From: an uncultured bacterium
GTDB lineage: Bacteria; Oederibacteriota; Oederibacteriia; Oederibacteriales; Oederibacteriaceae
Direction: 5' to 3'
DNA: 32,000 nt
Assembly: GCA_965112635.1 (NCBI GenBank)
Contig: OZ218778.1
Span: 730,258 to 762,257, forward strand
In this document: positions 14,624 through 25,812 of the stretch, one piece after another
Numbering within the stretch: the stretch's first letter is position 1
How the letters are laid out: each line of letters starts with the position of its first letter
Position numbers and translations under genes: made by a program
Notes under the pieces: model-generated
What the model was told of the DNA's origin: nothing
Seen by the model: the letters and a program-made list of their open reading frames with translations, nothing else
Databases searched by the model: none

Positions 14624-15412
14624 CTATTCCCTATCCTTCCTAACCTGCATAACATAGTGAATATTGAACTTTTTGAAAACATCGGTTTTCTCAATTCCAT
14701 CCGTTGTCCAGGTGTCCGGTAAAAAATTTGTTACGCCAAGTTTTGAGATTAAATATTCTCTTATTTTATTTTTGTAAAGCGACCCCTTCTTTTTTCCTTC
14801 CATAGGTTCTATTGGAAACAGATTATTTAAAATACAGCCCTGAAGCAAATCACAAACCCCCATTAATTCATACCCTTCAGCGCCAGATACAACATCTTGA
14901 ATATGGCGAATCTTAGGAAGTTTTGAATCCAGCGAGTAACCGGCCTCTATAGTGCTGAAATTACGCTTCAATACCTCCATAAAGGTTATCGGTTCACAGC
15001 GTGTCATTTTATCCAAAAAAAGGATCGCATTCGACATATGATCAAGATTTCTTTTAAGCAGTTCATCGGCCAGTGACCGATAGGCTCGTTCTCGTTTTAT
15101 CTTCGCTGGTTCATCTGGACGACCGTATATCTCCAGATCAAAGCTATTGTCTGTTTTTATAGCAATGCAACTAAAATGACTGTCGCTCAGCATGAAAGCA
15201 TCGATCGCTTCCTTATAAACCCTGAACGCTTTGGAATAATTACAGCGAGTATATTTAATTTCCTTGAAACTGCCATCAGGTAGAACATATGCATTGCGGG
15301 CCAATACTCCCTTTATTTGTTTGTGAAATTTATGATGCGTGGGATTAAACAAAGCCCCAAGAAGGAGCCACGTATGATTATGATCGTATGTTTCGTCTAA
15401 ATATATAATCAT
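14624..15412 (-). CDS. DUF3800-like protein
   Basis: A 262-aa ORF. The N-terminal MIIYLDETYD resembles the DUF3800 hallmark (hydrophobic-YxDES/T at the extreme N-terminus). The gene is AT-rich like the upstream operon. Confidence 0.75.
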   Translation of the reverse strand: MIIYLDETYDHNHTWLLLGALFNPTHHKFHKQIKGVLARNAYVLPDGSFKEIKYTRCNYSKAFRVYKEAIDAFMLSDSHFSCIAIKTDNSFDLEIYGRPDEPAKIKRERAYRSLADELLKRNLDHMSNAILFLDKMTRCEPITFMEVLKRNFSTIEAGYSLDSKLPKIRHIQDVVSGAEGYELMGVCDLLQGCILNNLFPIEPMEGKKKGSLYKNKIREYLISKLGVTNFLPDTWTTDGIEKTDVFKKFNIHYVMQVRKDRE

Positions 15413-15540: not shown

Positions 15541-17517
15541 TTATATTATTGCAAAACCAACATCTTTTAAATATTCAAAAGTCGGATCATAATAGTCTCG
15601 CTTACGCGTTTTATCCTCTGTGTCTCCCTGCGGTACTACCATCACCATACCTTGCCGAGCACGGGTTAACAAAACACGATATGCATTTTTCAAATAGTTT
15701 TGCCTTTCTTTCTTTTTAATATGATTCCAGCTCTCACCGCAAAAGGACCAATGCTCCCAACCTTTTTTTGAATATCTAAAATCAGCATCCCAGGCTACAC
15801 ATGACCAATCAAGCTCAAGCCCCTGGACTGCGAATTCAGTCGCAACATCTTCTAAATAATATGACGAGCGCACATCCTCCTTGCCATCAAGAAACCAATG
15901 AATCGGATCCATAGGAGTTTTCACATCTAGAGCATGAGGTTTTAACCGCTCAGCTTGAGAAGAAACCACAATGCCATATCGTTCTGAACCGCGGGCTTGG
16001 CTTCTTAACCATTTCTTTGCTTTAGTAAGATCCCGAGTAAGGACTATCGGATATTTTTCTTTTACATTGGCCAATGTTTTTCGTGCTTCATCAACATTAA
16101 GGTCTAATAGTTGCTTCACAAATAGCGAAACATTCTCCGCACGGAACGAACGCATAGAGACACCTAGATGTAATTCATTTTTGTAGGTAACATTTTCTCT
16201 AAGTTCAATTTTTTTCAAAACCTCACCAGCACCATATTCGCTATCTGTGAGCCGCGAGGAAATATAAATATCCCAATTGGGATATAAATGATTTAATGAT
16301 TCTATCCATTCGCTAATCCCAGCCTCGCCGGTGTTTATTTCCTGCCCTCCCCCCACAAGGCAAACAACAACGGCCCAATCCGTATGGCGATCTAAACAAG
16401 AAATTAAAAAATCCGGTTCCGATCGATTAAAATTAGCTACATGCTTTCTGCGGGTCATAAAATTGGTGGTTTGTTCCCTATTCCAAGCTCGTTGGGCCTC
16501 ATCAAACAATGCAACGTGTTCAATTGGTGGTTTTTTTGAATCAATCAGACATTCATCACGAAAATTATGAACATTCTGGATAAACATCTTAACCCCAGAC
16601 ATAACTTCGCCTTTTTTTACTTTGATCCCTTGCTCTTTCTCATGACGCACTTTATCTCTTGCAAGGGCCTCGCGTAGCACAGCAACAAGAGGCCCATTGC
16701 CAGATAAAAATACACTGTAAAGGTCATTCGATTTATCTATGTGCTGAGTAGCAATATTTAGACCAACCAAAGTTTTACCCGCACCAGGCACACCAGTGAC
16801 GAAACAGATAGATTTGCGCGAATTTTGTTTAGATAAACTAATGATTTTTGAAATAGCATCAGAGGTTTGACTCAGATTGATAGCGCTGGCATCCCTTCGA
16901 GAAATATCATGTACTGAATGGCCGTTATAAAGGGCCATAGCTGCCTCAATAATAGTCGGGGTGGGACAATAGCGTCCTTGTTCCCACTGACTTTGATTAA
17001 TGGCAATACCTTCTGTAAAGAGCAATACATTCTTTATCACTTGGCCAAGCAATGCCACAGTGCTTCTAATAGGAAAAAGAAGTTTGTCATTCTGCGGTGT
17101 CATTGCCACAACAGGAACGGCATGGTGAGCATTGGTAGCTACAAGGACTGGAGCAACAAATTGCTCATGACTCGATTCGTGGAAGTTTTTAAGGTCCAGA
17201 GCATAGTCACAGACCTGATCTAAAGCACCAGAATTAAATTCCTTTTCACCAATTTTAAATTCAAGCACAAAAATCGTAGAGCCTATTAGCAGCACCACAT
17301 CAATTCGCTTGCCCATACGAGGTATTGAATATTCAAAATAAATCGATCCCTGATTACCAATAAGGGCGTTTTGCAGAATATTGATTTCTTCTAACCATGC
17401 ATCACGTTGGCTTTGGACCAAATCAAAATCATTATTGCGTGCAAGTTGACCTAGAATTTCATCAGGATTTGTTTTAAGGAAAATAGCTATTGAACTAGAA
17501 TAATATTCTCGTTTCAT
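15541..17517 (-). CDS. DUF2075-type protein: N-terminal PD-(D/E)xK-like nuclease motif plus an SF1-like P-loop ATPase
   Basis: A 658-aa ORF. The nuclease-like motif is [30 protein letters not shown] (E...D...ExK). Walker A is [14 protein letters not shown] and Walker B is [12 protein letters not shown]. The C-terminal [16 protein letters not shown] is typical of DUF2075. Confidence 0.88.
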
Positions 17518-20923: not shown

Positions 20924-21286
20924 CTAAAGATCGGTATATTTTTTAGCGCTACCTTTGGCGAGTTTGACCGGATACTTGCGGGCGTTTTTCTTGATCTTGT
21001 CATGGGCACAGCGGATGGGGTCAACGCCCAGCATATCGCAAAGTTCCGTGAGATAGACCAATACATCGCCTATCTCATCTTTGACTTTTTTGAGGTCGGC
21101 TTTAGAAAGGTTTTTGCTTTGGTTCTCGGTCAGCCATTGAAAATGCTCCATAAGTTCTGAGGTCTCTACTGCAAGCGCCATAGAAAGGTTTTTAGGTGAA
21201 TGGTACTGTTCCCAATCACGGTCTTTTACAAATTTCTTTAATTTTCTGGAAATTTTTCTTAACCCACCTTGATTTCCCATTTTCAA
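20924..21286 (-). CDS. MazG-like nucleoside triphosphate pyrophosphohydrolase (DCTPP1/YpjD-like all-alpha NTP-PPase)
   Basis: A ~118-120-aa ORF. It has DWEQYHSPKNLSMALAVETSELMEHFQW (an ExxExxE metal site), DEIGDVLVYLTELCDMLGVD (ExxD), and KIKKNARKYP. The track start at 21286 is TTG, directly abutting the upstream stop. An ATG at 21280 with GGAG 9 nt upstream is an alternative. Confidence 0.88.
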   Translation of the reverse strand: MKMGNQGGLRKISRKLKKFVKDRDWEQYHSPKNLSMALAVETSELMEHFQWLTENQSKNLSKADLKKVKDEIGDVLVYLTELCDMLGVDPIRCAHDKIKKNARKYPVKLAKGSAKKYTDL

Positions 21287-21874
21287 CTACTCCACCCTAA
21301 ATATTTTAAGAAAATGTGACCTTGGTAACTCTGACTCATAGGACAGCCCGATATTGCACTTATCAAAATAACCGTCGCCCTCAGTCCATATTTTAAATGT
21401 CTTGGGATATTTACTCAGATATTTCTTTGTTATACGAAGACCTCTGCCACCAACCTTTAGTCTAAATAGATCATGTCTATTTTTTGGATTATTAAAATAA
21501 TTTCTCATATATGCATCTGTAAGATAAATGAGAAATTTATTTTCAGCTGTAAAATTTAGCAATTTTGAAATATCCCAAAATATTTGGCCCGCACCTTCGG
21601 TATAACCCGAATCTCCACCCCTGTGATATTTGAATTCAATAGCTACATTGTTATTTTTGTCATTCGAACATGCGTAAAAGTCCAGTTTATCTTTTTTGAA
21701 CAATTTATTTTTGAATGGATGTTCTAGGATAATATTCTCAGGTTTGTATTTTTCTTTTTTGGTAAGCGCGTAAAAAAAAGTGTAACGAATTGAATCTTCC
21801 GAATCATTAAAATCCCTGTCTTTCTCCAACCTTTTCTTAATTAATTCTGTAAAGTAACTAAATACTGGGAGCAT
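21287..21874 (-). CDS. Hypothetical protein with a PD-(D/E)xK-like nuclease motif
   Basis: A 195-aa ORF with SD AGGAGG 5 nt before the ATG. ...ILEHPFKNKLFKKDKLDFYACSNDKNNNVAIEFKYH... gives an E...D...ExK arrangement in a beta-strand context. No family was recognised. Confidence 0.7.
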   Translation of the reverse strand: MLPVFSYFTELIKKRLEKDRDFNDSEDSIRYTFFYALTKKEKYKPENIILEHPFKNKLFKKDKLDFYACSNDKNNNVAIEFKYHRGGDSGYTEGAGQIFWDISKLLNFTAENKFLIYLTDAYMRNYFNNPKNRHDLFRLKVGGRGLRITKKYLSKYPKTFKIWTEGDGYFDKCNIGLSYESELPRSHFLKIFRVE

Positions 21875-21914: not shown

Positions 21915-21943
21915 ATTCTATCCCCCCCATCCCCTCTAATCAA
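21915..21943 (-). promoter_or_regulatory. Candidate sigma70-type promoter of the AT-rich operon
   Basis: The minus strand has -35 TTGATT (21938-21943), a 17-bp spacer and -10 TAGAAT (21915-21920), about 40 nt upstream of the ATG at 21874. Confidence 0.5.
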
Positions 21944-22896: not shown

Positions 22897-24045
22897 TTAC
22901 CGCATTATCTTTCCCGACCAAAGTTCTTCCAGAAAAATATTCCAGGGCAGTATCCGGATGTTTCCCATCTTACGGGGTTTCGCGTCCCGTGATACCAGCA
23001 GCGCCTCTTTGACGCGGTATTCTTCCTGGAATGCTCTGAGCCCCCTGGCGTGGCGGTCGTCGGCGGTTTGGGCCGCTTTAACTTCCACCACCACTTCATG
23101 GTCCCCCAGGATAAAATCCACCTCCAGCTGTGAGGCGGTCCGCCAAAAGCACACCGGGTAATCCAAGCCGCTGTAACGGCTATGGGCCCAGATTTCCTGG
23201 AAAAGGAAGTGCTCAAAGGCCTTGCCAAAGGACTCGCCCCCCTCGGAGACTTTCCCGCGTTTCAAAAGATGGCCGGCCACCCCGACATCAAAAAAGTAGA
23301 ACTTGGGCGCCTGGATGACCCTGCGTTTGGGATTTTTCCTAAAGGAGGATATCTGGGTCGCCACCAGGGTATCCTCCAGGATCTGGAAATATTCCTTTAC
23401 CGTCGGCGGGCTGATGCCGCATTCCGTGGCGATATTTTGGTAGTTGAGGATCTCCCCATTGCTGAAGGCCGCGGCTTCCAGAAAACGGGCGAAGGCGGGG
23501 ATGTTGCGGGCCAAAGCCTCGGCGGCGATCTCTTCTTTTAGATAGTCCCCCAGGTAAGCAGCCATAAGTTTTTCGGCATCCTCGACCAGGTAATGCCGCG
23601 GCAGGAGGCCGTGGTTCAAGGCTCTGGTAAGGTCAAACCCGGGTATTTCCGCGCTGACCAGGGGGTGCAGCTCGTACCTCAAGGCCCGGCCTCCCAGCAG
23701 GTTGGCCCCGGAACGTTTCAGTTTCCGGGCGCTGGAGCCGCACAGGATAAAGGAGAGATGGTGGTTGACGATCAGCCATTGGATCTCATCCAGCAAAGCC
23801 GGGCACTTTTGGACTTCATCAATGATAATGGGGGTCCCGGGAGCCGGAAGCGCGGCCAGGATCTCCTCCCTCAAAAGAGCGGGATGCCGCGACAACCGGG
23901 CGTATTCGTCTGACAGGAGGAGATCGTAGTAGGGCGCTTGGGGGAAAAACTCCTTTAACAGCGTACTTTTCCCGGTCTGCCTGGCGCCCCAAAGAAAGGC
24001 GCTTTCGTTTTTTCGTCCCTGGAAGGTCTGCAGTCGTTTAAACAT
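22897..24045 (-). CDS. AAA+ ATPase with a DUF4143 domain (AAA_14/DUF4143 family)
   Basis: A 382-aa ORF. Walker A is WGARQTGKSTLL and Walker B is PIIIDEVQKCPALLDEIQ. It also has ILCGSSARKLKRSGANLLGGRA and a C-terminal PD-(D/E)xK-like EVDFILGDHEVVVEVK. Confidence 0.9.
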   Translation of the reverse strand: MFKRLQTFQGRKNESAFLWGARQTGKSTLLKEFFPQAPYYDLLLSDEYARLSRHPALLREEILAALPAPGTPIIIDEVQKCPALLDEIQWLIVNHHLSFILCGSSARKLKRSGANLLGGRALRYELHPLVSAEIPGFDLTRALNHGLLPRHYLVEDAEKLMAAYLGDYLKEEIAAEALARNIPAFARFLEAAAFSNGEILNYQNIATECGISPPTVKEYFQILEDTLVATQISSFRKNPKRRVIQAPKFYFFDVGVAGHLLKRGKVSEGGESFGKAFEHFLFQEIWAHSRYSGLDYPVCFWRTASQLEVDFILGDHEVVVEVKAAQTADDRHARGLRAFQEEYRVKEALLVSRDAKPRKMGNIRILPWNIFLEELWSGKIMR

Positions 24046-24064
24046 AGACTTAGTTTATCATGAT

Positions 24065-24092
24065 ATTATAAACAGTCAACTTAGAATGTCAT
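24065..24092 (-). promoter_or_regulatory. Candidate promoter of the DUF4143 ATPase gene
   Basis: The minus strand has ATGACA (24087-24092), a 16-bp spacer and TATAAT (24065-24070). The predicted leader is very short (under 20 nt) and no SD is visible. Confidence 0.4.
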
Positions 24093-24345
24093 AAAGCAAG
24101 GACACCACGGACAGAGCTCTCCTAGAGGGCCCTCGGCTTCGCCAGCCTCGACGGCTAGGCTCACAATGACAATTTGAGCAGGGAATCGCTTGTTTTGCTA
24201 TATTAAATAATGAAAAACATCAAAGTGTCCAAATATGTTAAAAATAGTCAAAATATTATCAATTTTTGATGATATTTATCACTTTTTGATAGTTTTTTGT
24301 CAGTTATTGACAATTTTGAACATGTTTTTAACATAAATGAAACCT

Positions 24346-25812
24346 TCAACCTTTTATGGTAGCTAAAGGCCTTAATTTTGCCACCTTTTTGGATATGCCC
24401 AACTGGTGTACCACCTCCACAACCTCATTGACATCTTTGTAGGCCTCCGGGCTTTCCTCAGCCACAGTCCCGCTATCCCGGGCTTTTAAAAATACCCCGT
24501 ATTTTTCCATCATTTCCCTGGGGATATTATGCCCCTGCCCCAGCTTGAGGGCCGCGGTCCGGCTCATCAGCCGGCCTGCGCCGTGGCAGGTGGAACCAAA
24601 AGTCTCCTTCATAGCCAGGTCCGTGCCTTTGAGCACATAGGAGGCCCTGCCCATATCCCCGGGGATGAAGACCGGCTGGCCGACGGGCCTGTATTTGGCC
24701 GGGATCTGGCTGTTTCCCGGCCCAAAAGCCCGGGTAGCCCCTTTGCGGTGCACGCAGACCTTGCGGAGCTTCCCCTGGACCAAATGTTCCTCGATCTTGG
24801 CGCTGTTGTGGGCCACGTCATAGACGAGTTCCAGCCCCAGGTCCCGGGCTTTTCTTCCCATTACCTGGCTGAAGGTGTCCCGGACCCAGCAGGTGATGAG
24901 CTGGCGGTTGGCAAAGGCGTAATTGACCGCACAGGCCATAGCGGCCAAATAGTGGCGGCCCTCCTTTGATCTAATGGGCGCGCAGGCCAGCTGGCGGTCA
25001 GGCAAGTCAAACCCAAAATCCCCTTTTTTGCTGTTGAGGAGTTTCAAATGGTCGTCGCAGACCTGGTAACCGAACCCCCTAGAGCCGGTGTGCAGGAGAA
25101 CGGCCGCCTGACCCAAAAAAAGCCCGAAGGTTGTCGCGGCTTCTGCGTCGTAAATTTCCTCCACCACCTGTATTTCCAAAAAATGGTTGCCCGAACCCAG
25201 AGTGCCCAGCTGTTTTTTGCCCCGCTCCCTGGCCCGAAGACTCACCAGCTCCGGGTCCGCGCCAATATAGGAACCTGTTTCCTCGATGTATTCCAGATCG
25301 TCAAAATCATCCTGGCTTTGGCCAAAACCCTGCTCCACCACCCAGCCCGCGCCTAAAGCGCAGACCTTGGCCGTGTCCTGGGGCGAAAGTTTGACCTTGC
25401 CCTCAGACCCCACGCCGGTGGGGATGTTGTCGTAAAGTTTCAGGATTAGTTTTTTCAGGACATCAGCAGGAAGGTCCTTTAGGCTGAGCTGGGTCCGGAG
25501 CAGTCTCACCCCGCAATTGATGTCATAGCCCACTCCGCCCGGCGACACCACGCCCTCGTCGCAGTCCATGGCCGCCACGCCTCCGATGGGAAACCCGTAG
25601 CCCCAGTGAATGTCCGGCATGGCGTAAGAGTAACGCAGGATGCCCGGCAGATGCGCCACATGGGCCACCTGCTCCAGAGCGTTATCATGCTGCATGGCCC
25701 GCATCATGGCCTCGCTGGCCAGGATGCGTCCCGCTACTCTCATGCCGGCCTCGCTGTCCTGGGGGATCTCCCAGCAGTAGTCGTTGATCTTTTTTATCTT
25801 AACTTCCATCAA
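24346..25812 (-). CDS. rtcB: RNA-splicing ligase RtcB
   Basis: A 488-aa ORF with MPDIHWGYGFPIGGVAA, GVGYDINCGVRL, GSGNHFLEIQ, HTGSRGFG and HGAGR motifs. The first track codon is TTG; the ATG at 25809 is an equally likely start. Confidence 0.95.
   Translation of the reverse strand: MMEVKIKKINDYCWEIPQDSEAGMRVAGRILASEAMMRAMQHDNALEQVAHVAHLPGILRYSYAMPDIHWGYGFPIGGVAAMDCDEGVVSPGGVGYDINCGVRLLRTQLSLKDLPADVLKKLILKLYDNIPTGVGSEGKVKLSPQDTAKVCALGAGWVVEQGFGQSQDDFDDLEYIEETGSYIGADPELVSLRARERGKKQLGTLGSGNHFLEIQVVEEIYDAEAATTFGLFLGQAAVLLHTGSRGFGYQVCDDHLKLLNSKKGDFGFDLPDRQLACAPIRSKEGRHYLAAMACAVNYAFANRQLITCWVRDTFSQVMGRKARDLGLELVYDVAHNSAKIEEHLVQGKLRKVCVHRKGATRAFGPGNSQIPAKYRPVGQPVFIPGDMGRASYVLKGTDLAMKETFGSTCHGAGRLMSRTAALKLGQGHNIPREMMEKYGVFLKARDSGTVAEESPEAYKDVNEVVEVVHQLGISKKVAKLRPLATIKG

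Follow-up and report, generated by a model that had tools for sequence, protein, structure and literature searches.

The described systems closest to the one considered here are Nhi of Staphylococcus epidermidis (Bari et al. 2022) and the Nhi-like systems, in which a single protein carries an N-terminal nuclease joined to a DUF2075 domain (Millman et al. 2022). DUF2075 NTPases (NTP, nucleoside triphosphate) have also been found adjoining modification-dependent nucleases, with no mention of a pyrophosphatase (Lutz et al. 2019), and a survey of nuclease-NTPase systems from 2025, the Nhi-like ones among them, mentions neither MazG, nor pyrophosphatase, nor dCTP. The locus analysed in this study lies in a stretch of 32,000 nucleotides (nt), referred to below as the window, from an uncultured bacterium of the family Oederibacteriaceae (GenBank assembly GCA_965112635.1, contig OZ218778.1, positions 730,258 to 762,257). 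Coordinates are those of the window, unless they are preceded by the number (L) of a related locus. Here, a gene for a small MazG-like NTP pyrophosphatase that resembles DCTPP1 directly precedes a gene for a nuclease-DUF2075 protein, its partner. These two genes very probably represent a conserved, horizontally mobile module, and the unit, of two genes or, as here, of four, is best regarded as a so far undescribed variant of Nhi-like nuclease-helicase defence that includes a conserved DCTPP1-like partner. To judge from the sequences, this widespread two-gene cassette looks like an anti-virus system.

The partner shares with Nhi and the Nhi-like proteins the order of an N-terminal nuclease followed by DUF2075 (PF09848). 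However, those are described as single proteins, whereas here a DCTPP1-like gene is conserved upstream; in addition, an S24 tail is present in many of the partners, and sequence similarity to the Nhi model is limited to the ATPase core. Literature searches for MazG together with DUF2075, with Schlafen/helicase defence or with nuclease-helicase defence islands found no paper, and a search for DCTPP1 in phage restriction found nothing relevant. No PADLOC model describing a MazG-DUF2075 pair was found.

Defences that deplete the deoxynucleoside triphosphates (dNTPs) by way of a dCTP deaminase or a dGTPase were reportedly described by Tal and co-workers in 2022. On the phage side, T4 gp56, a dCTPase of the MazG type, serves the phage by excluding canonical cytosine. 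The window enzyme, like the phage dCTPases, belongs to the all-alpha NTP pyrophosphatase superfamily and would likewise act in a phage-host conflict over base composition, but its clade is almost absent from phages and travels with host-type nucleases. In rare PUA-HAD variants, a MazG-like domain replaces the Calcineurin-CE effector and is predicted to target dNTPs (bioRxiv 2026.01.15.699771). A preliminary description of the window, made from the letters and a list of open reading frames, had suggested that depletion by a MazG-type enzyme would be a new enzymology, and this must be softened since the 2026 preprint already predicts MazG-like dNTP-targeting effectors. What our locus has in common with the dNTP-depletion defences (dCTP deaminase, dGTPase and PUA-Calcineurin-CE-HAD) is a nucleotide-pool enzyme in a defence context. 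It differs from them in the enzyme family and in the partners, there is no PUA-HAD protein fused or adjacent to the window MazG, and none of the models in PADLOC-DB v2 matches the window MazG-like protein.

When one genome per species was scanned for homologues of the MazG-like protein, 80 loci were obtained, and in 22 of these a DUF2075 gene of the partner type is immediately downstream on the same strand. Set against the 0-3 DUF2075 genes present per genome, this adjacency has a binomial p of 1e-40 if chance is put at 0.002 and of 1e-25 if it is put at 0.01. All-against-all clustering of the neighbours at the 80 loci identified DUF2075 as the sole recurrent neighbour at a fixed position. Three distinct contexts of the closest homologues of the window protein were read; in all of them MazG is directly followed by a DUF2075 protein of 570-846 amino acids (aa), some with an S24 domain, and in one of them two HNH_2 genes precede MazG. 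In a maximum-likelihood phylogeny the linked members group together, with 12 changes of state versus 22 in shuffles (0/500 shuffles were as low). The clade that includes the window protein is linked throughout (6/6), and the unlinked clades tend to track taxonomy. Neighbours at the unlinked loci are mostly housekeeping genes (RlmJ, CheZ, dehydrogenases), and a few are of the restriction type (HsdR, AAA_5/McrB-like, PIN).

The reverse comparison used a profile built from 21 partners to scan metagenomes, and the 80 closest relatives, which share 33-68 % identity, were retained. For 71 of these the upstream sequence extends over 450 nt or more, and 59 of the 71 have a MazG-like gene beside them; this applies to 21/22 partners with an S24 tail and 38/49 without one. 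A MazG-like gene is present at 63 loci in all, at 54 of which it is on the same strand and within 25 nt, and the two genes often overlap. At a few loci (L046:8380-9951 and L099:2426-4001), MazG and the DUF2075 partner are parted by an inserted gene or by >1.2 kb. Linkage of the homologues to nuclease genes, the lack of which the preliminary description had listed among the outcomes that would refute its proposal, was therefore found decisively, and from both sides. The same description pointed to an adjacent PUA-like HNH gene; this gene is a recurrent accessory but accompanies a minority of the pairs, and the fixed partner is the downstream DUF2075 nuclease-helicase.

The enzyme is present in 6 of 40 genomes from the same phylum, next to a DUF2075 gene in four of the six, and these phylum-mates share 36-43 % identity with the window copy. 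The best matches, at 60-66 % identity, are in other phyla; hence, the gene arrived with the island in which it lies, as part of a mobile two-gene unit. At 100 % identity the protein stands alone, the next relatives being at 66 %. The pairwise identities of the MazGs are only weakly correlated with those of the partners (Mantel r 0.22; 0/999 permutations as high). The nearest relatives of the window MazG (64 %) carry partners only 34-38 % identical to the window partner and, reciprocally, the nearest relatives of the window partner (68 %) carry MazGs that are 38-47 % identical. This mismatch indicates that the pairing has been re-made repeatedly, which in turn points to selection on the combination and, more tentatively, to action via the nucleotide pool over a co-evolving interface. 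With a mirror-tree r of only 0.22, a co-evolving MazG-partner interface is not claimed.

The open reading frame (20924-21286, minus strand) is intact and, as noted in the preliminary description, encodes both the ETSELME and the EIGDVLVY motifs. Translation probably begins with the ATG at 21280, giving 118 aa, because a GGAG is found approximately 9 nt 5' of it; an alternative TTG at 21286, which abuts the stop of the upstream gene, would give 120 aa. The match to the Pfam profile PF12643 (MazG-like) reaches 59.1 bits, where the cut-off is 27, and covers residues 39-120 of the 120 aa form. The protein is not a canonical MazG of the Escherichia coli type: PF03819, at 21.7 bits, just misses its cut-off of 22, NF007113 reaches 18 bits where 208 are required, and the template modelling (TM) score to 3cra is ~0.56. 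The NF007113 match, far under threshold, was the single NCBIfam match, and dUTPase_2 fell just under the Pfam cut-off.

DCTPP1, a homotetramer, hydrolyses canonical dCTP as well as 5-modified dCTP, producing the monophosphate and pyrophosphate (PPi). Sequence comparison and modelling together make it very probable that the window protein is a pyrophosphatase of this type. Its closest solved relatives found with phmmer are the archaeal AF1178 (4qgp, E 1.2e-20) and mouse DCTPP1, also known as RS21-C6 (6sqw/2a3q, E 1.5e-20), and the alignment extends into the C-terminal GSAxKYTDL tail. An AlphaFold model built from 25 homologues is all-helical, with a predicted local distance difference test (pLDDT) value of 83.7. 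The top Foldseek matches are human and mouse DCTPP1 (TM 0.75-0.83), and for these and AF1178 together TM is 0.75-0.85 with a root mean square deviation of ~1.9 Å and 36-40 % identity. The preliminary description had placed the protein near both DCTPP1 and YpjD. The first of these placements holds and the second does not, as Bacillus subtilis YpjD gave E 0.009 and TM ~0.54; the YpjD, E. coli MazG and DR2231 folds all have TM ~0.5 to the model.

The catalytic centre is intact, to judge from the sequence. The metal ligands E39, E42, (E45), E69 and D72 form an ExxE...ExxD set of carboxylates on the all-alpha bundle, and E39, E42, E69 and D72 are invariant in all 157 locus-derived homologues (85/85 nuclease-linked and 72/72 unlinked). 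In one close homologue, P0050, the first metal motif reads ETAKLME, with Lys at the position of its second Glu, which is Glu in all 157. The base pocket of DCTPP1 is made up of a Trp47/Trp73 sandwich lined by Phe41, Phe50, Ile101, Tyr102 and Tyr129, with Asp98 touching the sugar, and His38 and His51 have been proposed as a cytosine selectivity filter that forms hydrogen bonds to O2 and N3, His38 donating to O2 (PMC13291643); the same source describes DCTPP1 as hydrolysing base-modified dCTPs. When the residues listed there were mapped via the sequence alignment with DCTPP1, nine of the ten were found to be retained or conservatively substituted. Those retained are the sandwich (W23/W49), Phe41 (F17), His51 (H27, invariant in the family), Asp98 (D72), Tyr102 (Y76) and Tyr129 (Y103), and the conservative substitutions are Y26 for Phe50 and V75 for Ile101. 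The window enzyme therefore shares with DCTPP1 and AF1178 (6sqw, 2a3q, 7mu5, 4qgp) the fold, the size of the catalytic core, the metal ligands, the Trp sandwich and the GSAxKYTDL tail. It differs from DCTPP1 in having Leu at the His38 position, in lacking the eukaryotic N- and C-terminal extensions and in that its gene shares an operon with nuclease genes on a mobile island. As one of the two His residues of the selectivity filter is replaced by Leu, we refer to the protein as DCTPP1-like and not as a proven dCTPase.

The partner (DUF2075a) includes an N-terminal PD-(D/E)xK-like nuclease domain, a DUF2075/SLFN-g3 ATPase of the superfamily 1 type (PF09848, E 8e-84) and a C-terminal LexA/UmuD-like S24 domain. 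The 21 aligned partners have in common E68, D79, E97-x-K99 (IELKQW), the Walker A motif GGPGTGKS and DEAHR, and the S24 domain is found at the C-terminus of 16 of them. In two Oceanospirillaceae loci (L052:8375-10573 and L061:1335-3533), a GIY-YIG-like domain replaces PD-(D/E)xK at the N-terminus and MazG is still directly upstream; these two partners also have an insert of ~20 residues past Walker A. Among the PADLOC models, the matches of DUF2075a to Nhi and AbiO are partial and lie in the ATPase region, and that to PDC-S41 is confined to the N-terminal third of the model.

Downstream of the pair are genes for a 318 aa HNH_2 protein and for a second, 658 aa DUF2075 protein (DUF2075b), the latter matching PDC-S41 over residues 1-656 of its 658 (E 7e-287). 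By profile, the closest solved relatives of the HNH protein are VcaM4I (6yex) and TagI (6ghs), both of them modification-dependent PUA/EVE-HNH enzymes. The model of the whole protein was poor (pLDDT 59.7) and so the N-domain alone was used (pLDDT ~70-87). It matches ASCH domains, VcaM4I, the N-domain of McrB, an EVE protein and YTH domains, and is closest to the ASCH folds. With moderate confidence, this N-domain is predicted to be a PUA-like reader, in agreement with the preliminary description of the neighbouring HNH enzyme. The protein shares with VcaM4I and TagI its length and the layout of an N-terminal PUA-superfamily reader followed by HNH, and differs in that its N-domain, in a model of moderate confidence, lies closest to ASCH folds. 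It resembles the type IV restriction enzymes and is a recurrent accessory of the pair, with full-length orthologues beside MazG/DUF2075 in seven other loci. A further locus (L073:1474-3900) has MazG followed by an 809 aa McrB-like protein with an N-domain of the window HNH type, a Pfam Pua-like domain and AAA_5, suggesting a pairing of MazG with a system of the McrBC type.

The order MazG, DUF2075a, PUA-HNH, DUF2075b is also found in a metagenome contig (L101) and in two phylum-mates, G057 (L191) and G062 (L192). Compared with the latter two, the window block shares 35-38 % identity in MazG, 29-31 % in DUF2075a, 45-47 % in HNH and 64-65 % in DUF2075b, and the MazG-DUF2075a half seems to have been exchanged independently of the HNH-DUF2075b half. 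Across all four block loci, L101 included, the MazGs are 35-39 % identical and the DUF2075b proteins 64-65 % or higher. Two other phylum-mates have a PDC-S41 gene without the other three genes of the block in the flanks that were fetched.

Features in and around the block are listed in Table 1.

Table 1. Positions in the window of the MazG-like gene and of the features around it
Feature	Position	Strand	Basis or remark
DCTPP1/RS21-C6-type MazG-like NTP pyrophosphatase, 118 aa (very probable)	20924..21280	-	Pfam, PDB matches, AlphaFold model
Partner nuclease-helicase (DUF2075a), 793 aa	18533..20914	-	starts 9 nt past MazG stop; Pfam, PADLOC, alignment
Predicted PUA-like (ASCH/EVE-like) N-domain and HNH_2 nuclease, 318 aa	17546..18502	-	Pfam, profile and model matches
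Second nuclease-DUF2075 protein (DUF2075b), 658 aa, PDC-S41	15541..17517	-	full-length PADLOC match
195 aa orphan	21287..21874	-	stop abuts MazG start region; weak sub-threshold HSDR_N_2 match
Promoter-like TTGATT-17-TAGAAT	21915..21943	-	5' of first gene; match to consensus only
262 aa gene	14624..15412	-	128 nt downstream of four-gene block; no family match

On the minus strand the order is the 195 aa orphan, MazG, DUF2075a, the HNH_2 gene, DUF2075b and the 262 aa gene. The cluster is tight, with intergenic gaps of 0, 9, 30 and 28 nt, and it includes the nuclease genes among which the preliminary description had, correctly, seen the MazG-like gene embedded. It is located inside an island of 0.36-0.44 G+C, compared with ~0.55 in the flanking DNA. 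The host genome, a single contig of 2.88 Mb, contains only one PF12643 gene and two full DUF2075 genes, the latter both inside the island. Promoter and terminator scans of the region were not above chance (21 versus 19.9 expected and 10 versus 9.8), and the boundaries of the operon hence rest on gene spacing.

The 195 aa gene was rejected as a conserved partner, since no homologue is present in the ~170 related loci. Its family has nine other members among 5.8 billion proteins, and neither of the two contexts that were read adjoins MazG: one member directly follows an HTH-WYL-WCX regulator, with Fic and AAA genes nearby, and the other is beside a phage-type integrase. The gene shows no similarity to the 152 aa gene found 5' of MazG in the closest relatives, and probably represents an independent small gene of the mobile or defence kind. 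The 262 aa gene, for which neither a family nor a homologue at any related locus was found, was also rejected as a member of the module and is probably outside the unit. Just outside the low-G+C island, positions 22897-25812 encode an AAA_14/DUF4143 ATPase (PADLOC candidate PDC-S01, E 2e-55) and an RtcB RNA ligase, and given these two the neighbourhood may hold more genes of the defence type.

Members of the enzyme's clade were found in 15 of 50,697 phage records and on 100 plasmids, 74 of them from Bacillus. On the Bacillus thuringiensis plasmid pIS56-233, an HNH_2 gene is found in the vicinity of adjacent genes annotated 'nucleotide pyrophosphohydrolase' and 'DUF2075 domain-containing protein'; the PADLOC models did not match this MazG homologue either. 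In a Vibrio prophage (L178, PQ189364.1, 1885-6636), genes for an HNH protein, an HmuI-like HNH protein and MazG, with a 29 nt overlap, are located between the integrase and a cI-like repressor, and are accompanied by genes for a RiboL-PSP-HEPN protein and a type II restriction endonuclease. These HNH genes are not homologous to that of the window, and thus it is the domain class and not the gene that recurs. The record is annotated with proteins of the P2/186 type and is presumably that of a P2/186-like phage; this integrase-repressor region is a documented defence hotspot of P2-like phages.

The neighbours of linked pairs include MvaI/BcnI, Mrr, HsdR, AbiEi and antitoxins, together with ordinary genes. 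C5-cytosine methyltransferases (including L034:6727-7788) are the commonest single Pfam family near these pairs, in numbers that are too small to interpret, and the mammalian relative DCTPP1 hydrolyses 5-methyl-dCTP. In the closest relatives (L001:5770-10927 and L006:5774-10948), genes for a TPR protein, a 152 aa protein, MazG and DUF2075 are found between short MmeI_N and MmeI_C reading frames, and it looks as if the cassette was inserted into, or replaced the middle of, an MmeI-type restriction-modification gene.

The explanation that best accounts for the locus as a whole, and to which we give roughly an even chance, is a mobile module of MazG and a nuclease-helicase in which the enzyme sanitises non-canonical dNTPs. 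The module consists of MazG first, followed by a PD-(D/E)xK or GIY-YIG nuclease with DUF2075, often S24-tailed, and is here extended to four genes. The enzyme, converting dNTP to dNMP and PPi, would be constitutive and would, in trans, clear the nucleotide pool of non-canonical dNTPs, most likely C5-modified pyrimidine ones. Base-modifying phages would thereby be denied their precursors and their DNA would stay cleavable by the nucleases. Also, or instead, modified nucleotides released by restriction would be kept out of the host chromosome, which would be spared by the modification-reading nuclease. A narrower form, in which the enzyme is an anti-autoimmunity factor, is unlikely in our view. 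It would destroy modified dNTPs that are re-phosphorylated after the nucleases shred modified phage DNA or methylated host DNA, such that the host chromosome would never gain marks attacked by its own PUA-HNH, McrB-like or DUF2075 nucleases.

The role in modified dNTP metabolism is itself put forward tentatively, and our confidence in it, somewhat short of even, is held down by the loss of the His38 equivalent and by the putative nature of the DUF2075 nuclease target. Several observations weigh against it. Protection from phage and catalysis by the pair are predictions from sequence, and the ability of the partner to discriminate modified from unmodified DNA is putative. The equivalent of His38 is L14, and this position is Leu, Ile or Val in 153 of the 157 family members. 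Hence, base preference is not transferable from DCTPP1 and may differ from dCTP and 5-modified dCTP; of the DCTPP1-type substrate idea in the preliminary description, the enzyme class stands and the assumed dCTP specificity does not. Approximately 58 of the 80 species-level homologues (~70 %) are not beside a nuclease, and the enzyme thus also has an ordinary house-cleaning function elsewhere. Mere saturation in a protein of 118 aa could account for the weak mirror-tree signal, and C5-cytosine methyltransferases make up 3 of 61 linked-pair neighbours, which is a hint and not a trend.

Were the MazG-like gene simply a house-cleaning gene that hitch-hikes beside defence genes and contributes nothing, the many homologues located away from nucleases, mostly among housekeeping neighbours and in clades that follow taxonomy, would be expected. 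However, 59/71 partner relatives keep MazG and 54/63 have it within 25 nt, the pairing persists across many phyla, swaps of the nuclease domain and reshuffled subclades, and the window copy arrived with the island (60-66 % identity to other phyla versus 36-43 % to phylum-mates). The adjacency statistics bring this possibility close to refutation, and we consider it highly improbable. An abortive infection of the bulk-depletion type, in which the enzyme would be unleashed on infection, the pool of dCTP or of all dNTPs would collapse and phage replication would halt, is consistent with the hydrolysis of canonical dCTP by enzymes of this class (DCTPP1), with the MazG-like NTP-targeting effectors predicted for rare PUA-HAD systems (bioRxiv 2026.01.15.699771), and with the S24 tail of the partner, which could provide a damage-triggered switch. 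Yet the protein is a bare catalytic domain of 118 aa, without sensor or inhibitor, and MazG also accompanies 38 of the 49 partners in which the S24 tail is absent. Enzymes of the same clade, whose metal ligands are identical, occur as solitary genes in housekeeping surroundings and therefore cannot be strongly toxic; the general dNTP depletion that the preliminary description offered as an alternative is less likely for this reason. No PADLOC dNTP-depletion model matches the enzyme, and the weak co-evolution argues against tight allosteric control by the partner. Taken together, bulk depletion is improbable.

It is about equally doubtful that the enzyme is an antitoxin-like regulator or brake of the nuclease-helicase, hydrolysing the nucleotide, for instance a dNTP, NTP or alarmone, by which the DUF2075 motor would be controlled as by a cofactor or signal. 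MazG is always the first gene and often has a stop/start overlap with the next, an arrangement that would lead to coupled, roughly stoichiometric expression; the catalytic residues are invariant, and the recurrent partners (DUF2075, McrB-like AAA_5, HsdR) are all NTP-driven DNA motors or nucleases. On the other hand, the pair is not linked to any synthase of signalling nucleotides, the pocket resembles that of DCTPP1 and has a Trp sandwich of the pyrimidine type, partners and MazG subclades are freely reshuffled, and the related single-protein systems Nhi and Nhi-like are described as working without a brake. Sanitising of the pool is preferred over bulk depletion because the protein has no regulatory domain, because same-clade enzymes are harmless among housekeeping genes and because DCTPP1 acts on modified dCTPs. 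The weak correlation between the MazG and partner phylogenies also fits an enzyme that acts through a diffusible pool better than one that co-evolves with its partner at a protein interface.

If the pair is a defence system, a nucleotide-pool enzyme becomes an obligate partner of Nhi-type nuclease-helicases, which are now treated as single-protein systems, and annotation pipelines such as PADLOC miss half of the unit. The pair makes testable the idea that hosts counter base-modifying phages by acting on the pool of precursors, a mirror image of the phage dCTPases. The cassette is ~2.8 kb and is widespread, occurring in many phyla, gut metagenomes, Bacillus plasmids and a Vibrio prophage, so that laboratory tests should be easy. 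It also offers a tractable bacterial model for the function of DCTPP1-type enzymes, for which protection from stray modified cytosines and tuning of dCTP are the alternatives in mammals. Should the anti-autoimmunity reading prove true, the enzyme would represent a new class of defence component, a pool sanitiser that is neither sensor nor effector, and would be a bacterial counterpart to the epigenome-protecting role proposed for mammalian DCTPP1.

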